Part shown: positions 2,444 through 21,044 of the stretch, piece by piece
Position numbering within the stretch: position 1 is the first letter of the stretch
Layout of the letters: each line of letters begins with the position of its first letter
NCBI GenBank assembly: GCA_964195155.1
Contig: CAXMOP010000045.1
Coordinates: 23,636-87,635 of the forward strand
DNA: 64,000 nucleotides
Source: an uncultured Kiloniellales bacterium
GTDB taxonomy: Bacteria > Actinomycetota > Acidimicrobiia > Spongiisociales > UBA5794
Direction of reading: 5' to 3'
Program-made: the position numbers and the translations under genes
The notes under the pieces: model-generated
Database searches by the model: none
What the model was told of the DNA's origin: nothing
What the model saw: only the letters and a program-made list of their open reading frames with translations

Positions 2444-3292
2444 ATGAATCGCCCCCCGGCGCCAATGGACAAGCCGCTGACGTACCCCGGGCACACTCGA
2501 CCTGGCTCCTACCTCTTTGATGGACATGGCTCGCCAGATCTCGACATATCGGCGGGCCGACGCCTGGGCCAGGCACGCATCCGGTGGGCGCAAGAGACCG
2601 TCGGTGGTGAGCCAACGTATGTCAATCTGAACAGATACCTGCTCGAGGTAAACGCCATCACTGTGGACCACCGATTCCCGGTCATGGCCTTTGGCTCCAA
2701 CGCCAGCGAGGCCCAGCTCGAAAAGAAGTTCGTGGGCGAGCCGACCGTGATCCCGGTCATTGGCGCATCGGTGAGAGGCTTGGCGGTGGCCTACTCTGCG
2801 CACGTCGCCGACTATGGCTCAGTTCCGGCCACGCTCTATTCAATGCCCGACATGACATCACCGGTACATGTCATGTTCGTAGACGAGGGTCAAATGGCCA
2901 CTCTGGTCAAATCCGAGAAGAATTACGACCTCCGCTGGCTCGACGGCGACACGTACCCGCTCACGCTCGATGCTTCCGGGGAAGTCCTGGACGGATGCTA
3001 TGCGTTTGTCTCGAAGCATGGGGTTTTGAACCTGGGCGGTCAGCCCACGCTCATGTCCGGAATCGATGTTGGTTCCACCAATCTTCCCGACGAGAACCAA
3101 GCGGCAATTCTCGAAGAGGTGTTGAAGCGATGGAACAAGTCTCACGACCCGCAGATCGACGACGTCAGGTCTTTCAGCAACGCAATCCGTGAGGGTCGTC
3201 TTGACGCATCCCAAGTCACTAGTTGGCTCGTCGACAACTTTTCGCTCAACGCCAAGCTTGGATCATCTTCAAGGGCCTCAGAGATCGCTTAG
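2444..3292 (+). CDS. Hypothetical protein, possibly GGACT / gamma-glutamyl cyclotransferase-like fold
   Basis: RBS-like aagagggaag precedes the ATG. MAFGSNASEAQLEKKF resembles the YxxYGSN motif of AIG2/GGCT-like proteins. No other recognisable motifs. Confidence 0.35.
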   Translation: MNRPPAPMDKPLTYPGHTRPGSYLFDGHGSPDLDISAGRRLGQARIRWAQETVGGEPTYVNLNRYLLEVNAITVDHRFPVMAFGSNASEAQLEKKFVGEPTVIPVIGASVRGLAVAYSAHVADYGSVPATLYSMPDMTSPVHVMFVDEGQMATLVKSEKNYDLRWLDGDTYPLTLDASGEVLDGCYAFVSKHGVLNLGGQPTLMSGIDVGSTNLPDENQAAILEEVLKRWNKSHDPQIDDVRSFSNAIREGRLDASQVTSWLVDNFSLNAKLGSSSRASEIA

Positions 3293-3316: not shown

Positions 3317-3754
3317 ATGGATCGGTTTCGTACCATCAAGGGGGGCATGCTCATCGCCTTTGTTATTGGGATGATCGATGCCCTGGTCATCTGGACCATC
3401 GCCAACCTGTTCGACGTGACCATCCTCCTCCCCGAGAGCCCCGGCTCGGAAACGCTCACCGAGCTCACGATCCCACCCGTGCTGTTCATCATCGGGCTGT
3501 CATCGGTGCTCGCCGGGATCCTCCTGTGGGTGTTGCAACGTTTCGTCCCGGACCGCGCCCTGATCATCTTCCAGATCGTCGCGGTGATCGCGCTGGCCCT
3601 GTCCCTGGTCCTCCCGTTTACCCTCGACCAACCGATCGAGGGCCAGCTTGCCCTCCTGACGATGCATCTGCTGGTGGGGTCGGCGATCATCGCCACCTTC
3701 ACCTGGGTCGCGATGAAACCGCGGCTACGCCCCCAGGACCCTGTCGAGAACTGA
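3317..3754 (+). CDS. Hypothetical integral membrane protein (4 predicted TM helices)
   Basis: Hydrophobic stretches IAFVIGMIDALVIW, VLFIIGLSSVLAGILLW, IVAVIALALSLVLPF and LLVGSAIIATFTWVA. Confidence 0.5.
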   Translation: MDRFRTIKGGMLIAFVIGMIDALVIWTIANLFDVTILLPESPGSETLTELTIPPVLFIIGLSSVLAGILLWVLQRFVPDRALIIFQIVAVIALALSLVLPFTLDQPIEGQLALLTMHLLVGSAIIATFTWVAMKPRLRPQDPVEN

Positions 3755-5106: not shown

Positions 5107-5844
5107 ATGAAACCCGTGATCGGCATCACCGCGCAGCCAGAGTCGGTCGAAAATGCCAGCGGGCCCCTCGACTCGCACCTCATCGGCCACACCTACACCG
5201 ATTCGGTGCTGCGCGCCGGCGGAATTCCTGTGACGCTGATTCCCGTTCCAACCCAGGACATCGCCCAGGTGCTCGATACCATCGACGGCCTCGTCCTGTC
5301 GGGCGGGGGCGACGTGGACCCCTATCGCTACGGTCACGAGCGGCACGACACGACATCGAGGACCAACTTCGATCGAGATGAATTCGAGCTCGAGCTCATC
5401 AAAGCGGCCCGCGCCCGGAGCATGCCGGTTCTGGCGATCTGTCGGGGGGTCCAGGTCGTGAACGTCGCCTTCGGTGGCAGCCTCATCCAGGACATCCCAA
5501 CGGCGATCGGGTCCAAGGACCACGACGTCATGGGACAAGCCGTTTACGAAGGGCATCAGCCGGTGACGATCGCCGCCGACTCCAAGATCGCCAAGGCAAC
5601 CGGTGAAACTTCAATGCTGGTCAACTCGATCCACCATCAAGCGATCGACCAGCTGGCCGACGGTTTTCGCCCGGTGGCATGGGCCGAAGACGGCATCGTC
5701 GAAGGGATCGAACACGAGGACGAAGGCTGGGAGCTGCTCGGCGTCCAATGGCACCCGGAGTTTCTCGGCGACAACTCCGACGAACCCTCCCAACTGCTGT
5801 TCGACACCCTGGTCAAGAACGCGCACGGCCACGCTGGGTCCTGA
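5107..5844 (+). CDS. Gamma-glutamyl-GABA hydrolase-like class I glutamine amidotransferase (peptidase C26 family)
   Basis: The catalytic Cys sits in the AICRGVQVVN context, and the HHQAI His motif is present. The N-terminus MKPVIGIT matches the family start. Confidence 0.8.
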   Translation: MKPVIGITAQPESVENASGPLDSHLIGHTYTDSVLRAGGIPVTLIPVPTQDIAQVLDTIDGLVLSGGGDVDPYRYGHERHDTTSRTNFDRDEFELELIKAARARSMPVLAICRGVQVVNVAFGGSLIQDIPTAIGSKDHDVMGQAVYEGHQPVTIAADSKIAKATGETSMLVNSIHHQAIDQLADGFRPVAWAEDGIVEGIEHEDEGWELLGVQWHPEFLGDNSDEPSQLLFDTLVKNAHGHAGS

Positions 5845-5847
5845 TCC

Positions 5848-6279
5848 TTGGCGACCGTCCTCTTCGTCTGCACCGGCAACATCTGTCGGTCGCCGATGGC
5901 CGAGTACCTGGCCCGGGCGCTGGCCCGGGACGATGAGATCAGCTTCGCATCTGCCGGCACGAACACCCATTCGCGCATCGAGCCCTCCGACGGAACCCGG
6001 CAGGTGATGAAGGAGATCGGCATCGATCTCGGCGATCACCGCTCGCAGCCGGTGTGGGAGGTCGGGGCCGACGCCGATGTGATCTACGCGCTCTCTCAGG
6101 AGCATCTGGACGCGATGGCGTCGCAGTGGCCCGACCGGGCCGATGACATTCACCTGCTCCGGCTCGACGGGGCTTCGATCGCCGATCCATACGGTCTGGA
6201 CCTGGAGTCGTATCGGAAAGCCAGAGACCAGATCGAGGTCGCGATCAATGAGCGGGCCGCGACAGGCTGGGATCGATAG
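5848..6279 (+). CDS. Low-molecular-weight protein-tyrosine phosphatase / arsenate reductase family
   Basis: P-loop VLFVCTGNICRSPMAEY (CX5R) and the conserved DPY motif near the C-terminus. Confidence 0.8.
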   Translation: MATVLFVCTGNICRSPMAEYLARALARDDEISFASAGTNTHSRIEPSDGTRQVMKEIGIDLGDHRSQPVWEVGADADVIYALSQEHLDAMASQWPDRADDIHLLRLDGASIADPYGLDLESYRKARDQIEVAINERAATGWDR

Positions 6280-6323: not shown

Positions 6324-7106
6324 ATGAAGCCGGTGCTCTTCGAGGTTCTCGGGTGGGGGGTGCCGACCCATGAGTTTTTCATCGGTATTGGCGTCGCGGT
6401 CGCGGCCCTCATCTATTTCCTGGAGGCCCGCCGCAAGGGTCAACTCGGTGAGCAGACCGCCTGGATCGCCGTCGGTGCACTGATCGGCGGAGCCATCCTG
6501 GCCAAGGTGGGCTCGGCCTGGCGTTTCGTCGGTTCCGGTGCCACCGTCGAGGAGCTCTTCCTCTTTGGCGGGCGTTCCATCCTCGGCGGGCTCGCCGGCG
6601 CATACATCGGGGCCGTTATCGCCAAACGGCTCGTCGGCTACCGGCGGAGTACCGGGGATCTGTTCGCACCCGCGGTAGCGATTGGCCTCGCCATTGGAAG
6701 AATCGGTTGCTTTCTCACAGAACAAGTCGGAACACCGACGACCATGCCGTGGGGCGTCACCGTGTCCGCCGAAGCAGCAGCTTCGATCCAGAACTGCCCA
6801 CAGTGCCTCACCGGCGAGGCGATGCACCCCTCCTTTCTGTACGAGATCGCCTTTATGGCCATCGCCTTTGCCGTGTTGTGGTGGGGGAGGGACCGGCTCG
6901 CCGCCGGGCTGAGCTTCAAGCTGTTCCTGCTCGGCTACGGCCTGCTCCGATTCGGATTGGAGTTCGTCCGCGGCAATCCAGACATGGCGTTTGGCCTGTC
7001 GGGATCACAGATCTTCCTGCTCCTCACCATCCCGCTGCTGATCGTCCATGTCGCACGTCTGAGCTACCAAGAACGGAGAATCGCGATGTCTGGAGCCCAC
7101 GCATGA
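6324..7106 (+). CDS. lgt: Prolipoprotein diacylglyceryl transferase (Lgt)-like membrane protein
   Basis: Seven-TM profile. The LIGGAILAKVGS and GRIGCFLTEQ segments resemble the Lgt signature G-R-x-G-N-F-x-N-x-E. Its stop overlaps the next ORF's start (ATGA). Confidence 0.5.
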   Translation: MKPVLFEVLGWGVPTHEFFIGIGVAVAALIYFLEARRKGQLGEQTAWIAVGALIGGAILAKVGSAWRFVGSGATVEELFLFGGRSILGGLAGAYIGAVIAKRLVGYRRSTGDLFAPAVAIGLAIGRIGCFLTEQVGTPTTMPWGVTVSAEAAASIQNCPQCLTGEAMHPSFLYEIAFMAIAFAVLWWGRDRLAAGLSFKLFLLGYGLLRFGLEFVRGNPDMAFGLSGSQIFLLLTIPLLIVHVARLSYQERRIAMSGAHA

Positions 7107-7447
7107 CCGAGGAAGGCACACCGATCGAAGACGGCGACGAATTCTTCGGGTCACAGGAACCGGATGAGCCGAAACCCAGCAAGGGCCTTGGCTGCTTCTA
7201 CGGCGGCCTCGCCGTGGTTGGCACGTTCATCGGCGGCAACATTCTCGTCGGGTTGCTCTTCGCGGCGATCGGCGACATCGGGGGCGCAGGTGCGATCTTC
7301 GGATTCATACCGCTCGGCCTCCTCATCGCAGCCGGTGTGTATTGGCGAAAGATCCCGGGCTTCCTGCTCGGAATTGGGCTCACCATCGGGATCAGCCTCG
7401 CTCTGGTGACGGCATGCACGGCGGTCCTCTTCACGAACCTGGGATAA
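7103..7447 (+). CDS. Small Gly-rich integral membrane protein (114 aa), hypothetical
   Basis: ATGA overlap with the lgt stop. Gly-zipper TM segments GGLAVVGTFIGGNILVGLLFAAIGDIGGAGAIFGF. Its stop lies 2 nt before the radical SAM ATG. Confidence 0.5.
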   Translation: MTEEGTPIEDGDEFFGSQEPDEPKPSKGLGCFYGGLAVVGTFIGGNILVGLLFAAIGDIGGAGAIFGFIPLGLLIAAGVYWRKIPGFLLGIGLTIGISLALVTACTAVLFTNLG

Positions 7448-7449
7448 CG

Positions 7450-9027
7450 ATGACCACCGGGATGCCGACCAGAGAAGACCGGATCATGCGATACGTCAAT
7501 GCGTTCTGCCCCCACTGTCACGACGAATATCCGGATCGGCCGCTCGATGAGGTGAGCCGCCTCTCCGGATACCTCAGCGTGGCAGAAGACCAGGTCTGGC
7601 TGGTGCGGGGATGCCCGGAGCACGGCAAGGTCGTCACCCTGTACGACGAGGACCCGGAGATCCTCGAGTACCTCGAGCAGTGGACCGCGCCCACCAAATA
7701 CCACATCCCGGACACACCGGGGAACTACGACCCGGTGCCGTCGGCATATCTGCGTGGTCTCGGCGAAATCCAGACCCAGCACACCTGCATCCTCCTCGAA
7801 GACGTCACCCAGGAGTGCAATCTGCGTTGCCCGACCTGTTTTGCCGACTCGTCGCCACAGCTATCGGGGGTGGTAGCGGTGGAAGACATTCTCGCCAACA
7901 TCGACCAACGGATCGGCCGCGAAGCGGGCAGGATTGATGTGCTGATGATCTCAGGCGGGGAGCCGACCATCCACCCCGATTTCATCGCCTTGCTCGATCG
8001 CGTCACCGAGCGGAACATCACCCGCATCGTCGTCAACACCAACGGCATCACGATCAGCCGCGACGATGAGCTCCTCGATGCATTCCACCGCCACAGGGAG
8101 CAAGTCGAGGTCTATCTCCAGTTCGACGGATTTCGCAGGGAGACCTACCTGCACCATCGCAACGCCGATCTGCGGACCATGAAGGAACGTGCGGTTGAAC
8201 GGATGCGCGACGCCGGCGTGTTCATGACGCTCACTATGACCGCTGCGCTCGGAGTCAATGACGACGAGATCGGCGACGTCGTCAGCTACGCCATGGAGAC
8301 GCCATACATCGGCGGGGTGTCGATCCAGCCACAGTTTGGCTCCGGTCGCTCCGGTGCCATCAATCCCCTGGAGCGACTCACCCATACCGGCGTGCTGAAG
8401 CGCCTCGGGCCCCAAACCGGCGGGATCGTCAAGTGGGATGACCTCACCGCGCTTCCGTGCTCACATCCGCACTGTTGCAGCGTCGGCTACATGATCCAGA
8501 AGGACGATGGCGAATGGCAGTCGCTGATCGGGATGATCGGCCACGAGCGGGCGAAACAACACCTCGATCTCGTGGCGAATCGGATCGCCGACGACGACCT
8601 GCCCAAGGAGGTCCGGAATGCGGTCAAGGCCTCGCTGCTCGGCCTGCTGTCGGAACAATCGTCACTCAGCCACCCCACCGTGGGGGATCTCATCCGCACC
8701 GTGTGCGAGAGCTGCGACCTCGGGGTGAGCTCGCTTTTGAGCATCGCGGCCGATGCCGGGCGAAACGGCAGCAAGCTCCGCGAGACCCTGGCGACCAGGG
8801 TCAAACGGATCACGGTCAAGCCGTTCATGGACATGAACACGATGATCGAAGAGCGCTTGATCCAATGCTGCGTGCACGTCGGCACCAAGAGCGAGGCTGA
8901 CCTCGATCAGTGCGCACCATTCTGTGCGGTGCAGGCGTGGGCTCCGCTCGGGCGCCAGAAACTGTCGGAAGTCGCGGGTAGCCGGCTCGGGTCGGTGCCC
9001 CTCACCCTGGAAAGGGCAACGATATGA
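7450..9027 (+). CDS. Radical SAM domain protein with N-terminal zinc-ribbon and Cys-rich C-terminal domain
   Basis: CxxxCxxC radical SAM motif (ECNLRCPTCFAD) with a downstream GGEPT SAM-binding motif. The N-terminus carries CPHCHDEY...GCPEHG (zinc-ribbon/rubredoxin-like). The C-terminal Cys clusters are CSHPHCC, CESCDLG and QCCVHVG...QCAPFC. The start is set at the ATG at 7450, directly after the upstream stop, rather than the track's in-frame 7342. Confidence 0.8.
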   Translation: MTTGMPTREDRIMRYVNAFCPHCHDEYPDRPLDEVSRLSGYLSVAEDQVWLVRGCPEHGKVVTLYDEDPEILEYLEQWTAPTKYHIPDTPGNYDPVPSAYLRGLGEIQTQHTCILLEDVTQECNLRCPTCFADSSPQLSGVVAVEDILANIDQRIGREAGRIDVLMISGGEPTIHPDFIALLDRVTERNITRIVVNTNGITISRDDELLDAFHRHREQVEVYLQFDGFRRETYLHHRNADLRTMKERAVERMRDAGVFMTLTMTAALGVNDDEIGDVVSYAMETPYIGGVSIQPQFGSGRSGAINPLERLTHTGVLKRLGPQTGGIVKWDDLTALPCSHPHCCSVGYMIQKDDGEWQSLIGMIGHERAKQHLDLVANRIADDDLPKEVRNAVKASLLGLLSEQSSLSHPTVGDLIRTVCESCDLGVSSLLSIAADAGRNGSKLRETLATRVKRITVKPFMDMNTMIEERLIQCCVHVGTKSEADLDQCAPFCAVQAWAPLGRQKLSEVAGSRLGSVPLTLERATI

Positions 9028-9338
9028 GACAAGAGCCGCCGGCCACATTCAGCCACCGTCCGGGCGTTGTGGACATCAGGGAAGCGCAGCAGTTCGATCC
9101 GCTCCAGCTGTGCATCTACACCACGATCGGGATCATCTCGTGGCTGATCACACCGGCGCTGACCGTTGCCATTTTCGGCGGCCTTGGCGTGGTTGGATAC
9201 GTACGCGCCCGAAGGCGCGGCCTGGCGAAGAGCCGCTGCAAGCTTGGCGACACCCGGCTGGTCATCGCCTACCTTGGCGTTGCGGCGACGATCGGCGCTG
9301 CGATCACGATCTACCGCATCGCCGAACTGATCACCTGA
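9024..9338 (+). CDS. Small integral membrane protein (104 aa), hypothetical
   Basis: ATGA overlap with the radical SAM stop. Two TM segments: IYTTIGIISWLITPALTVAIFGGLGVVGYV and LVIAYLGVAATIGAAITIY. Confidence 0.45.
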   Translation: MRQEPPATFSHRPGVVDIREAQQFDPLQLCIYTTIGIISWLITPALTVAIFGGLGVVGYVRARRRGLAKSRCKLGDTRLVIAYLGVAATIGAAITIYRIAELIT

Positions 9339-20971: not shown

Positions 20972-21042
20972 GCGGGTGTAGTTCAATGGCAGAACATCAG
21001 CTTCCCAAGCTGAATACGGGGGTTCGATTCCCCTCACCCGCT
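20972..21042 (+). tRNA. tRNA-Gly (anticodon CCC)
   Basis: Cloverleaf: acceptor GCGGGTG/CACCCGC, D-arm GTTC..GAAC, anticodon stem TCAGC/GCTGA with loop TTCCCAA, T-arm GGGGG-TTCGATT-CCCCT. 71 nt. Confidence 0.8.
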
Positions 21043-21044
21043 CA

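Follow-up and report, generated by a model that had tools for sequence, protein, structure and literature searches.

Four open reading frames, all on the + strand, occupy positions 6324-9338 of the 64-kb window (the whole stretch of DNA that was analysed). The genes and their features are as follows.

6324..7106, + strand: ORF 1, a variant Lgt paralogue named LgtL (260 aa); polytopic membrane enzyme with the Lgt fold
7103..7447, + strand: ORF 2, the Cys-tail membrane protein pep2 (114 aa)
7346..7444, + strand: C-terminal signature of pep2, the proposed acceptor site (basic patch R82, K83; last TM helix; Cys105; tail TAVLFTNLG)
7450..9027, + strand: ORF 3, a Tes/GDGT-MAS-like radical SAM enzyme, rSAM (525 aa)
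7507..7623, + strand: predicted rubredoxin-like Cys3His metal site of rSAM (C20, C23, C55 and H58, CPHC...CPEH; all 4 invariant)
7816..7839, + strand: radical SAM cluster motif CX3CX2C of rSAM (CNLRCPTC; C123, C127, C130)
8458..8925, + strand: C-terminal Cys-rich domain of rSAM, placed by family conservation and alignment with GDGT-MAS
9024..9338, + strand: ORF 4, the small two-cysteine membrane protein pep4 (104 aa)

The junctions, as read from the sequence, are an ATGA overlap between LgtL and pep2 (7103-7106), a 2-nt gap between pep2 and rSAM (TAA-CG-ATG, 7445-7452), and a second ATGA overlap between rSAM and pep4 (9024-9027). ORFs 2 and 4 encode hydrophobic proteins, and TM segments are absent from rSAM. 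The tight coupling of the four ORFs and the description of ORFs 2 and 4 as membrane peptides, both made in the original prediction, therefore stand. Homologues of all 4 ORFs were found in conserved synteny in other genomes, which indicates that these are real genes and not chance ORFs of high-GC sequence. The four-gene cassette is conserved across several bacterial phyla. In the literature searched, we found no description of a linkage between LgtL-like and Tes-like genes and no function described for the cassette.

LgtL was linked at 76 of 80 genome loci selected by rSAM and, in an independent metagenome collection, rSAM was linked at 52 of 55 loci selected by LgtL. This linkage spans at least six phyla, occurs on plasmids as well, and persists at 41%, 37%, and 30% rSAM identity, with the genes rearranged and in hosts from other phyla. 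The original prediction had named the absence of a conserved pairing in other genomes as grounds for rejection; instead, the linkage proved to be bidirectional. No other neighbor gene was conserved around the cassette.

By sequence and by structure, the sole full-length relative of rSAM is GDGT-MAS/Tes. Comparison with PDB 7TOL (archaeal GDGT-MAS/Tes) gave an E-value of 4.7e-33 over residues 46-494, and the AF2 model of rSAM (pLDDT 67, with low confidence at residues 373-437) matched 7TOM and 7TOL in Foldseek with E-values of 8e-25 and 2e-24 and TM scores of 0.65-0.70. The remaining Foldseek matches were confined to the RS core. rSAM scored below the cut-offs of the curated NCBIfam models, with 156.8 bits for Tes (cut-off 450) and 204.5 bits over residues 36-494 for TrsS (NF045646; cut-off 490), which was the top-scoring curated HMM. 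Pfam Radical_SAM matched with 80 bits and Zn_ribbon_HMPTM with 33.8 bits (cut-off 27). There was no SPASM Pfam match, and SPASM-family NCBIfam models matched over the RS core alone (approximately residues 110-285). The suspected likeness to tetraether synthase thus proved to be full-length homology in sequence and fold, the protein still belongs to no characterised family, and no well-characterised radical SAM family unrelated to membranes, which had been named as contrary evidence, was matched.

The Cys motifs noted in rSAM beforehand (CPHC...CPEH, CNLRCPTC, CSHPHCC, CESC, and CC...C...C) are all present, and most of their residues are invariant in 82 family members. The N-terminal pattern matches the rubredoxin-like motif of GDGT-MAS, C9X2C12...C33X2H36 (PMC9433317). 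C123, C127, and C130 align with C98, C102, and C105 of GDGT-MAS, and the SAM motif GGEP (G169-P172) is invariant. In the C-terminal domain, CSHPHCC corresponds to C337, C342, and C343, CESC to C419 and C422, and CC...C...C to C473, C474, C488, and C492. C342, C473, C474, and C492 align with C338, C455, C456, and C470 of GDGT-MAS and are conserved across the superfamily, and C113, C337, C419, C422, and C488 are extra invariant cysteines relative to GDGT-MAS. Any choice among the C-terminal cysteines as ligands of an auxiliary cluster is putative and made from sequence. In GDGT-MAS, C73, C77, C80, and a His hold the N-terminal auxiliary [4Fe-4S] cluster; the three cysteines are absent from the rSAM family and from its 41-63% relatives, the aligned residues being D/S, R, and G/P. 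Met439 and Tyr459, reported to be completely conserved among 1000 archaeal homologues (PMC9433317), are replaced by K457 and V477, neither of which varies within the family. Because these equivalents are not conserved, the radical chemistry of rSAM may differ.

LgtL matched Pfam LGT (PF01790) with 104.5 bits (cut-off 24.9), in agreement with the diacylglyceryl-transferase-like protein predicted for the first ORF. It scored 68.2 bits against the NCBIfam Lgt equivalog TIGR00544 (cut-off 118.9) and was far under the cut-offs of all other NCBIfam Lgt models. E. coli Lgt (5AZB) was matched by phmmer with an E-value of 1.6e-7 and was the only significant fold match of the LgtL AF2 model (TM 0.62). 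The Lgt motif has 13 residues (Y26, H103, G104, G142, R143, G145, N146, E151, G154, Y235, R239, E243, and R246), and all except Y26, H103, and N146 are kept in LgtL, that is, 10 of the 13. R126, G128, E133, G136, Y205, R209, E213, and R216 of LgtL are equivalent to E. coli R143, G145, E151, G154, Y235, R239, E243, and R246, respectively. H16, L87, and C129 stand in for Y26, H103, and N146, and these changes are near-invariant (74-76 of 78 LgtL family members). Y26 and N146 have been assigned to PG entry and H103 to thiol activation or protein specificity (bioRxiv 10.1101/2025.03.27.645668). The head domain carries a CxxC (C158/C161) that is shared by 66-67 of the 78 members and is absent from Thermoanaerobaculia/Acidobacteriota loci and two others (L009 and L054). 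There was no canonical lgt within the window.

pep2 has an acidic N-terminus and approximately 3 Gly-rich TM segments, the last of which is preceded by R82-K83 and ends in V-T-A-C105 (Cys105 codon at nt 7415-7417), leaving a tail of 9 residues. The positive-inside rule predicts a basic-in, Cys-out orientation, as in a signal peptide with a lipobox. The pep2 family had no Pfam or NCBIfam match. At 63 of the 75 loci in which LgtL is upstream on the same strand, LgtL and rSAM are separated by a hydrophobic ORF of that strand, and the signature "basic - ~20 hydrophobic residues - G/T-x-C - short tail" was present in 56 of 64 such intervening proteins. Two screens placed the motif near 64 of 74 and 40 of 46 complete cassettes. 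All 72 motif-bearing segments (of 10,880) in one screen and all 41 (of 4,279) in the other were at the cassette and none were outside, and pep2 was the single match among the 939 segments of the window. About 13% of complete cassettes, including several Gemmatimonadaceae loci, have no strict Cys-tail ORF nearby.

The N-terminal parts of the Cys-tail proteins are mutually unrelated (Pro-rich, acidic, zinc-ribbon, or helical domains), and all that these proteins have in common is the tail: a basic patch, a TM helix, G-x-C, and then 5-16 residues. Their genes are frequently tandem duplicates and may precede LgtL, separate the two enzyme genes, or follow pep4. This pattern of a shared tail on otherwise unrelated proteins encoded at the cassette fits substrates carrying a recognition signal. 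Within lineages, the residues after the Cys are conserved, as in C-T-G-[IV]-N-P-x-[LM]-Y of Mycobacteriales and Streptosporangiales. Position -1 is mostly bulky (F/L/V/I) and position -2 is Gly, which differs from the canonical lipobox, [LVI][ASTVI][GAS]C. The "Gly-zipper membrane peptide" of the original prediction was correctly placed in the membrane, but its importance was underrated, as it carries the most diagnostic feature of the system, the conserved TM-GxC tail.

The "second membrane peptide", pep4, was likewise rightly called a membrane protein but was underrated, as it represents a conserved family of proteins with two cysteines. Both cysteines are invariant and lie in the motifs DPLxxC (C30) and, within a basic loop, GLxxSxCxLxDxRLV (C72). 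pep4 was downstream of rSAM at 58 of 80 genome loci and was truly missing at approximately 20, or about a quarter, chiefly in the M. fortuitum group. It is found with both cysteines kept beside 41% and 48% rSAM relatives, and look-ups starting from pep4 recovered LGT-rSAM-pep4. No family name was available, with all 106 matches labeled "hypothetical".

Taken together, these data suggest that the probable role of the cassette is to attach a lipid to a dedicated membrane protein and to remodel it there. We hold with somewhat less than even confidence that it forms one membrane-associated machine for dedicated lipid modification of a membrane protein. Several findings point to dedicated lipidation: rSAM is a full-length GDGT-MAS homologue with no variation in the rubredoxin site, the RS motif, or the C-terminal cysteines that the two share; LgtL has the Lgt fold and 10 of 13 motif residues, including R143 and R239, with three near-invariant changes at the residues for PG entry and thiol activation; the linkage is bidirectional with no other conserved partner; and the Cys-tail proteins form a client-like set whose motif is confined to the cassette and whose orientation mimics that of a signal peptide with a lipobox.

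In the proposed scheme, LgtL keeps the residues that hold the phosphatidylglycerol phosphate and perform glyceryl transfer, has a remodeled lipid-entry and acceptor site (Y26H, H103L, N146C), and would move diacylglyceryl onto the conserved G-x-C cysteine, located where the last TM helix of the neighboring Cys-tail protein ends on the outer side. The soluble Tes-like rSAM would dock at the cytoplasmic membrane face, possibly via pep4, and, as does GDGT-MAS, would use 5'-deoxyadenosyl radicals and a C-terminal Fe-S cluster to abstract H from saturated alkyl-chain ends, giving C-C bonds. This coupling could precede transfer, acting on the phospholipid donor, or follow it, acting on the lipid already bound to protein, and would yield a macrocyclic or membrane-spanning lipid anchor. 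Acceptor, sequence of steps, and chemical product are all putative. The specific proposal of an unrecognised protein lipidation, in which LgtL S-diacylglycerylates an intramembrane, near-C-terminal GxC cysteine and rSAM then joins the alkyl-chain ends to form a protein-bound macrocyclic or membrane-spanning anchor, is speculative and rather unlikely. If true, it would be the first assigned function for a bacterial Tes homologue and for the "second Lgt" class.

Several observations speak against the lipidation reading. The proposed thiol activator, H103, is replaced by Leu, and the -1/-2 residues of the motif are unlike those of the canonical lipobox. The Lgt active site faces outward while rSAM is cytoplasmic, leaving the access of both enzymes to one lipid unexplained. 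The strict Cys-tail ORF and pep4 are each missing from a share of cassettes, as given above. Lastly, the equivalents of GDGT-MAS Met439/Tyr459 are not conserved, and the C-terminal region of the rSAM AF2 model is of low confidence.

Alternatively, rSAM could couple the acyl tails of phospholipids into membrane-spanning or macrocyclic products like diabolic acid or the precursors of brGDGT, with LgtL shifting a (modified) diacylglyceryl or glycerol between lipids and the small proteins acting as structural or regulatory subunits. We consider this free-lipid pathway possible but not likely. A role in making brGDGT or membrane-spanning lipids has been proposed for the Tes homologues of bacteria (PMC8941075, PMC11868695). 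The bacterial membrane-spanning lipid synthase Mss (Thermotoga, Thermoanaerobacter) carries out radical SAM tail-to-tail joining of fatty-acyl tails, the kind of chemistry proposed for the cassette, but it is only remotely related to Tes, has been found only in anaerobes, and has no reported Lgt or Cys-tail partner (PMC13159169). Because Mss is absent from most aerobic Acidobacteria making iso-diabolic acid (PMC13159169), an alternative enzyme is expected there, and the carriers of the cassette include Blastocatellia and Thermoanaerobaculia. The changed LgtL residues Y26 and N146 are PG-entry residues, as a free-lipid role would allow. Some loci adjoin lipid genes (cdsA, or WS/DGAT with an acyl-AMP ligase); however, these flanking genes are not conserved across loci. 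Many cultured Mycobacterium, Mycolicibacterium, Nocardia, and Nonomuraea also carry the cassette, and these carriers are not known to make membrane-spanning lipids. Moreover, of the conserved partners, the most specific one is a protein bearing an invariant cysteine at a lipobox-like position, for which a pure lipid route would have no need.

In being small, variable, and adjacent, with frequent tandem copies, the Cys-tail genes are like precursor genes, and their post-Cys tails are conserved within lineages. A RiPP-like pathway is therefore conceivable, in which the Cys-tail precursor is S-lipidated, radically cross-linked by rSAM, and cleaved before the Cys to release a lipopeptide (Cys plus 5-16 residues). 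We regard this as improbable: the cassette has no conserved protease, transporter, or RiPP recognition element, rSAM has no SPASM/twitch domain and belongs to the lipid-binding Tes lineage, and bulky -1 residues make poor signal peptidase II sites.

We also give little credence to a scaffold role, in which a catalytically altered LgtL would anchor rSAM to the membrane without lipid transfer and the conserved cysteines of LgtL (C129), pep2, and pep4 would bind a metal or Fe-S cluster or act as a thiol/redox relay for rSAM. Such a role would be in keeping with the loss of 3 Lgt motif residues and the invariable introduction of a cysteine in the LgtL active site, with the two invariant cysteines of pep4, and with an rSAM clade in which the N-terminal auxiliary cluster has disappeared and further invariant cysteines have arisen. 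However, the 10 catalytic and PG-binding residues, including R143, R239, Y235, E243, and R246, are near-invariant across phyla, and a mere scaffold would not be expected to show this. The version found in Bacteroidota retains the N-terminal cluster cysteines yet is still LGT- and GxC-linked, and the pep2 cysteine is predicted from topology to lie on the side opposite rSAM. That a redundant housekeeping Lgt merely adjoins an unrelated rSAM, such as a pterin methylase per the old MJ0619 annotation, is hardly credible; some sources do name homologues "7,8-dihydro-6-hydroxymethylpterin dimethyltransferase" or "prolipoprotein diacylglyceryl transferase", but LgtL is under the Lgt equivalog cut-offs, MJ0619 was shown to be a tetraether synthase whose pterin methylase activity could not be corroborated (PMC9433317), and the bidirectional linkage in at least six phyla, in rearranged order and down to 30% identity, effectively refutes it.

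Compared with known systems, rSAM resembles GDGT-MAS/Tes (M. jannaschii MJ0619; 7TOL, 7TOM) in multi-domain architecture, fold, Cys3His site, CX3CX2C motif, and 4 C-terminal cysteines, and both are soluble enzymes acting on membrane lipids, although for rSAM this substrate is a proposal. It differs in having just 24% identity and 157 bits against the Tes cut-off of 450, in lacking the [4Fe-4S]N ligands, in the Met439 to Lys and Tyr459 to Val changes, and in its extra invariant cysteines. The hosts of rSAM are bacteria with ester lipids, many of them from aerobic taxa, and its gene is paired with LgtL and Cys-tail proteins, a pairing not known for Tes. TrsS, a radical SAM (seleno)protein, is another member of the Tes-like superfamily, but the higher TrsS scorers P0163 and P0168 (329-351 bits, sub-threshold) retain the N-terminal cluster cysteines and are paired with an overlapping class-I methyltransferase, not LGT. 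No function for TrsS was found in the published literature searched.

LgtL shares with Lgt (E. coli; 5AZB/5AZC) the Pfam domain, the fold, and the 10 motif residues. In addition to its three substitutions and sub-equivalog scores, LgtL differs in its shorter head domain, usually with CxxC, and in being tied to rSAM and to proteins whose Cys does not follow an N-terminal signal peptide but lies near the C-terminus, behind a TM helix (G-x-C). MSMEG_5408, the second Lgt homologue of M. smegmatis, is reported to carry the Y26H and N146C substitutions seen in LgtL and is presumed to be a weak Lgt (bioRxiv 10.1101/2025.03.27.645668). It is dispensable, and its preference for a different lipid has been raised as speculation (bioRxiv 10.1101/2025.01.07.631728). 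Of the 120 closest relatives of M. senegalense LgtL, none was a named M. smegmatis protein. In the dedicated C-terminal sorting-signal systems sortase/LPXTG, exosortase/PEP-CTERM, and archaeosortase/PGF-CTERM, an enzyme gene lies beside variable clients that have in common only a short motif and a TM helix close to the C-terminus. The cassette follows the same logic of a processing enzyme beside variable client proteins, but the order of its elements is reversed (basic patch, TM, motif, short tail), its enzyme is homologous to a lipid transferase rather than being a transpeptidase, and the set includes a radical SAM enzyme.

The cassette consists of 4 ORFs on the forward strand, which encode an Lgt paralogue (LgtL), a membrane protein with a cysteine in its C-terminal tail (pep2), a radical SAM enzyme resembling the archaeal tetraether lipid synthase GDGT-MAS/Tes (rSAM), and a small membrane protein with 2 cysteines (pep4).

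Features of the cassette in the window
6324-7106, + strand, LgtL ORF, 260 aa
7103-7447, + strand, pep2 ORF, 114 aa
7450-9027, + strand, rSAM ORF, 525 aa
9024-9338, + strand, pep4 ORF, 104 aa

The original prediction that these ORFs are tightly coupled was borne out by the sequence itself, in which the successive junctions read ATGA, TAA-CG-ATG, and ATGA. A promoter and terminator scan found no sigma-70-like promoters inside the block, and terminator-like sites occurred at chance rate. A convergent gene for a GHMP kinase (homoserine-kinase-like) shares 8 nt at its 3' end with the stop region of pep4 (9331-9338), and no terminator-like site separates the 2 genes. The neighbors of the cassette in the window encode a peptidase C26/GATase, an LMW phosphatase, the GHMP kinase, a cation-efflux protein, and an ABC transporter; these are unrelated housekeeping genes and were not conserved beside homologous cassettes elsewhere. 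Comparison of homologous loci found no further conserved neighbors, and the extra large neighbor clusters were rejected as conserved partners, being rSAM shadow ORFs in other frames. The peptidase-C26/GATase and LMW phosphotyrosine phosphatase genes (5107-6279) lie upstream on the same strand with gaps of 3 nt and 44 nt; they may be co-transcribed with the cassette in the window and had no linkage to it in other genomes. Farther upstream are a 282-aa ORF without a Pfam match (2444-3292) and a DUF6069 membrane protein (3317-3754). A tRNA-Gly gene (anticodon CCC) is present at 20972-21043, distant from the cassette, and no other RNA genes or elements were detected in the window by ARAGORN or Rfam.

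Scanning one genome per species gave 386 rSAM relatives, the best 80 of which were used for comparison. These 80 were 63-85% identical despite the many lineages involved, which included Acidimicrobiia, Mycobacterium/Mycolicibacterium, Nocardia, Nonomuraea, Microbispora, Nanopelagicales, Gemmatimonadaceae, Thermoanaerobaculia, Blastocatellia, Dormibacterota, and Chloroflexota. An Lgt-like gene accompanied rSAM in 76 of 80 loci, lying directly 5' of it in 75 and on the opposite strand in the other, and in 3 of the remaining 4 loci the rSAM start was less than 300 nt from the contig end. For the reverse test, 80 metagenome loci were chosen by alignment of the Lgt-like protein, and 55 of these had at least 1.2 kb of downstream sequence. 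rSAM was present in 52 of the 55. Two of the exceptions (L103 and L105) had LgtL about 120 nt or less from the contig start, and the third (L104) had no rSAM in about 1.4 kb on the 5' side of LgtL or 3.8 kb on its 3' side. The linkage that had been proposed between the Lgt-like and rSAM genes held whichever protein was used to choose the loci. The cassette genes very probably form a single functional unit.

Clustering at 50% left the rSAM family as essentially a single cluster. Full-length relatives were 63, 48, and 41% identical, and after these identity fell to 37% or lower. The order in the 41% relative was rSAM-LGT-(2 Cys proteins)-pep4-like, and that in the 37% relative was LGT-2 Cys proteins-rSAM. 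A 30% relative on a plasmid of Chondrinema litorale (Bacteroidota; L170, NZ_CP111057.1, 3271-5591) had the order LGT-rSAM-64-aa GVC-tail protein, the last of which ends in GAGVCGSFF; the LGT gene overlapped rSAM and carried N146C and H103M (E. coli Lgt numbering), and the rSAM retained the N-terminal cluster triad (CPYDCGLC) though linked to LGT and a GxC tail. Tes/TrsS-like bacterial relatives with 33-34% identity were instead paired with a class-I SAM methyltransferase gene and had no LGT (e.g., L166, 5001-7210, and L168, 5001-7321). The methyltransferase gene overlapped rSAM by 4 nt in L166 and L167 and began 17 nt downstream in L168 and L169. This pair looks like a separate, also uncharacterized, 2-gene system.

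A copy of the cassette with LGT, 2 tandem GxC-tail ORFs, and rSAM was found on plasmid pS2b of M. avium subsp. hominissuis (L171, NZ_CP076860.1, 2234-5554), a mobilizable 344-kb plasmid from a clinical isolate, beside a RES/Xre toxin-antitoxin pair and an IS110 transposase. The M. avium plasmid copy, together with the 63-70% identity across phyla, suggests horizontal spread of the cassette. Single loci placed the cassette beside an acyl-AMP ligase and WS/DGAT (L172, 1-4797) or beside cdsA in a Nocardioides MAG (L173, 310-5183); such lipid-metabolism neighbors were not conserved across loci. Loci from MAGs labeled "Kiloniellales" or "Clostridia" (L001, L010, L021) had cassettes resembling the Acidimicrobiia-like and Blastocatellia versions, and a "Kiloniellales"-labeled locus was the closest genome match to the window, with an rSAM 85% identical. 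These labels look like binning or labeling errors.

The 525-aa rSAM was matched by both Pfam Radical_SAM and Zn_ribbon_HMPTM. Its sole full-length relative in the PDB was GDGT-MAS (7TOL; E 4.7e-33, residues 46-494 vs 44-492), the archaeal tetraether and macrocyclic-archaeol synthase, whose residues are numbered here after PMC9433317. An AlphaFold2 model of rSAM (pLDDT 67, pTM 0.74; unreliable at residues 373-437) matched 7TOM and 7TOL across the whole chain (E about 1e-24, TM 0.65-0.70), and the remaining fold matches covered the radical SAM core only. The rubredoxin-like CX2C...CX2H site of GDGT-MAS (C20, C23, C55, and H58 in rSAM) and the radical SAM motif (C123, C127, and C130) were kept and invariant in the rSAM family. 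Likewise, the C-terminal C338, C455, C456, and C470 of GDGT-MAS corresponded to invariant C342, C473, C474, and C492. In contrast, the [4Fe-4S]N ligands C73, C77, and C80 of GDGT-MAS were missing in the rSAM family and in its 41-63% relatives, C438-Met439 was replaced by V-K457, and Tyr459 was replaced by V477. Met439 and Tyr459 are reported to be completely conserved in 1000 archaeal homologues (PMC9433317). Of the additional invariant cysteines of rSAM, C113 and C337 occurred also in most bacterial members of the superfamily; C419, C422, and C488 were specific to the family.

No curated family model claimed rSAM. Membership in TrsS or Tes was rejected, as the scores were under the curated cut-offs (204.5 bits vs 490 for TrsS; 156.8 bits vs 450 for Tes) and defining residues were missing. 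Pfam and curated-model searches found no SPASM/twitch domain, and an anti-phage defense role was rejected since PADLOC yielded just generic viperin-core matches to the radical SAM core. Because of its residue pattern against GDGT-MAS, rSAM is predicted from sequence to work like a Tes-type lipid-tail radical enzyme, yet the tested defining features place it outside Tes. A lipid chain is fairly likely to be its substrate.

LgtL scored 104.5 bits against Pfam LGT and matched E. coli Lgt (5AZB) with an E of 1.6e-7; E. coli Lgt was also the only significant fold match of the LgtL model (TM 0.62). Scores were far under every NCBIfam Lgt equivalog cut-off (e.g., 68.2 vs 118.9). From the 13-residue Lgt motif, the LgtL family retains G104, G142, R143, G145, E151, G154, Y235, R239, E243, and R246, whereas Y26 is changed to H, H103 to L, and N146 to C in 74-76 of 78 members. 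The LGT genes beside the 41%, 37%, and 30% rSAM relatives likewise had N146C, and their residue 103 was hydrophobic. In Lgt, R143 and R239 are reported to position the PG phosphate, Y26 and N146 to function in PG entry, and H103 to function in thiol activation and protein specificity (bioRxiv 10.1101/2025.03.27.645668). The same study reported Y26H and N146C in MSMEG_5408, the second Lgt homologue of M. smegmatis; no named M. smegmatis protein was among the 120 closest relatives of the M. senegalense LgtL. MSMEG_5406, two genes from MSMEG_5408, is a hypothetical protein that is about 9-fold down in zinc starvation in M. smegmatis (PMC7174638). No second lgt was found within the 64-kb window. 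The predicted head domain of LgtL contains a CxxC (C158 and C161; window 6795-6806) that most members from Actinomycetota, Gemmatimonadota, and Blastocatellia share; in Thermoanaerobaculia and other Acidobacteriota it gives way to F..A. It was considered as a partner of pep4 or pep2 and rejected, as there was no correlation and its absence was lineage-specific.

The pep4 family is a conserved small membrane protein family with 2 invariant cysteines, C30 within DPLxxC ahead of the first hydrophobic stretch and C72 within a strongly basic loop (GLxxSxCxLxDxRLV). pep4 was downstream of rSAM in 58 of 80 loci. The remaining 22 loci, mostly from M. fortuitum-group mycobacteria and including 2 that were truncated, had no match to a core-only HMM. 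Both cysteines were kept in pep4 beside the 48% and 41% rSAM relatives, and 2 reverse look-ups from pep4 homologues led again to LGT-rSAM-pep4.

By tblastn, a homologue of pep2 was found in L001 only. A same-strand hydrophobic ORF nevertheless occupied the LgtL-rSAM gap in each of the 63 loci where that gap was at least 150 nt. These ORFs belonged to several unrelated families (43, 12, 4, and 2 members, plus singletons) with Pro-rich, acidic, zinc-ribbon, or small helical N-terminal parts, and no Pfam or NCBIfam family covered them. They shared a C-terminus, referred to here as TM-GxC, made up of a basic patch, a hydrophobic stretch of about 20 residues, G at -2 (54 of 56), any residue at -1, Cys, and then 5-16 residues; the signature in pep2 is R82-K83 ... 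V-T-A-C105-TAVLFTNLG. Tandem duplicates occurred in 7 loci (L035, L042, L059, L077, L083, L165, and L171). When the LgtL-rSAM gap was empty, a Cys-tail gene could be found directly upstream of LgtL (L003, L008, L031, L042, and L173) or downstream of pep4 (L019). A strict TM-GxC ORF accompanied 64 of the 74 genome cassettes that were complete and 40 of the 46 such cassettes from metagenomes. Every motif-bearing segment was at the cassette and on its strand (72 of 72 among 10,880 stop-to-stop segments from genomes, and 41 of 41 among 4,279 from metagenomes), and pep2 was the only 1 of 939 segments in the 64-kb window to carry the motif.

The Cys-tail proteins vary in sequence, are frequently duplicated, change position within the cassette, and have one short signal in common, which we infer to be the pattern expected of client substrates. 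The substrate geometry of Lgt, a signal peptide followed by a lipobox cysteine, has the same orientation as the Cys-tail, in which basic residues are followed by a TM helix and a cysteine at its far end. LgtL could transfer diacylglyceryl from PG or a modified PG onto the GxC cysteine. Either before or after that transfer, the Tes-like rSAM could form C-C bonds by abstracting hydrogen from the termini of alkyl chains. The product would be a macrocyclic or membrane-spanning anchor, and the role of pep4 may be to hold the soluble rSAM at the membrane. We hold it to be a little short of an even prospect that the GxC cysteine is the LgtL acceptor, and the combined model of lipidation and radical C-C coupling is somewhat more tentative. 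Against the combined model, the TM-GxC motif differs from the canonical lipobox, H103 is lost in LgtL, the active sites of LgtL and rSAM are expected on opposite membrane faces, and some cassettes have no nearby Cys-tail gene or no pep4.

Alternatively, the cassette could be a free-lipid pathway making membrane-spanning or macrocyclic lipids, in agreement with the hypothesis that ties bacterial Tes homologues to brGDGTs (PMC8941075, PMC11868695) and with the missing enzyme of aerobic Acidobacteria (PMC13159169). This pathway accounts neither for the cysteine signal nor for the fact that mycobacteria and Nocardia carry the cassette, and we consider it unlikely. A RiPP-like lipopeptide route is improbable, and it is equally improbable that LgtL and the cysteines serve as a scaffold or redox relay. 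Fortuitous adjacency of the cassette genes is excluded by the synteny data and has almost no chance of being correct.

No paper that treats radical SAM and Tes or tetraether together with Lgt or diacylglyceryl transferase was found in full-text literature searches. In a review from 2026 on radical SAM enzymes that modify lipids, bacterial Tes homologues appear as bioinformatic detections only (PMC13459092). The Lgt survey mentions N146C variants, has no occurrence of the word "radical," and covers the genomic context of just 22 pathogen lgt loci (bioRxiv 10.1101/2025.03.27.645668). The cassette enzymes are members of known superfamilies, but the 4-part module and the TM-GxC signal appear to be undescribed, the latter being a new and highly specific C-terminal signal. 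There is a real chance that the cassette is a new type of protein lipidation, and it could explain the enigmatic second Lgt paralogues of Actinobacteria. Surveys of genomes and metagenomes commonly list bacterial Tes homologues as potential sources of brGDGT palaeoclimate biomarkers, yet none has a demonstrated function, and the cassette is a caution that some of them may not be free-lipid synthases. The defined partner set of the cassette clade makes the function of a bacterial Tes homologue directly testable, and tractable carriers exist among cultured strains, such as Mycolicibacterium senegalense ATCC 35796, M. peregrinum, Nocardia concava NBRC 100430, and Microbispora rosea JCM 3076.
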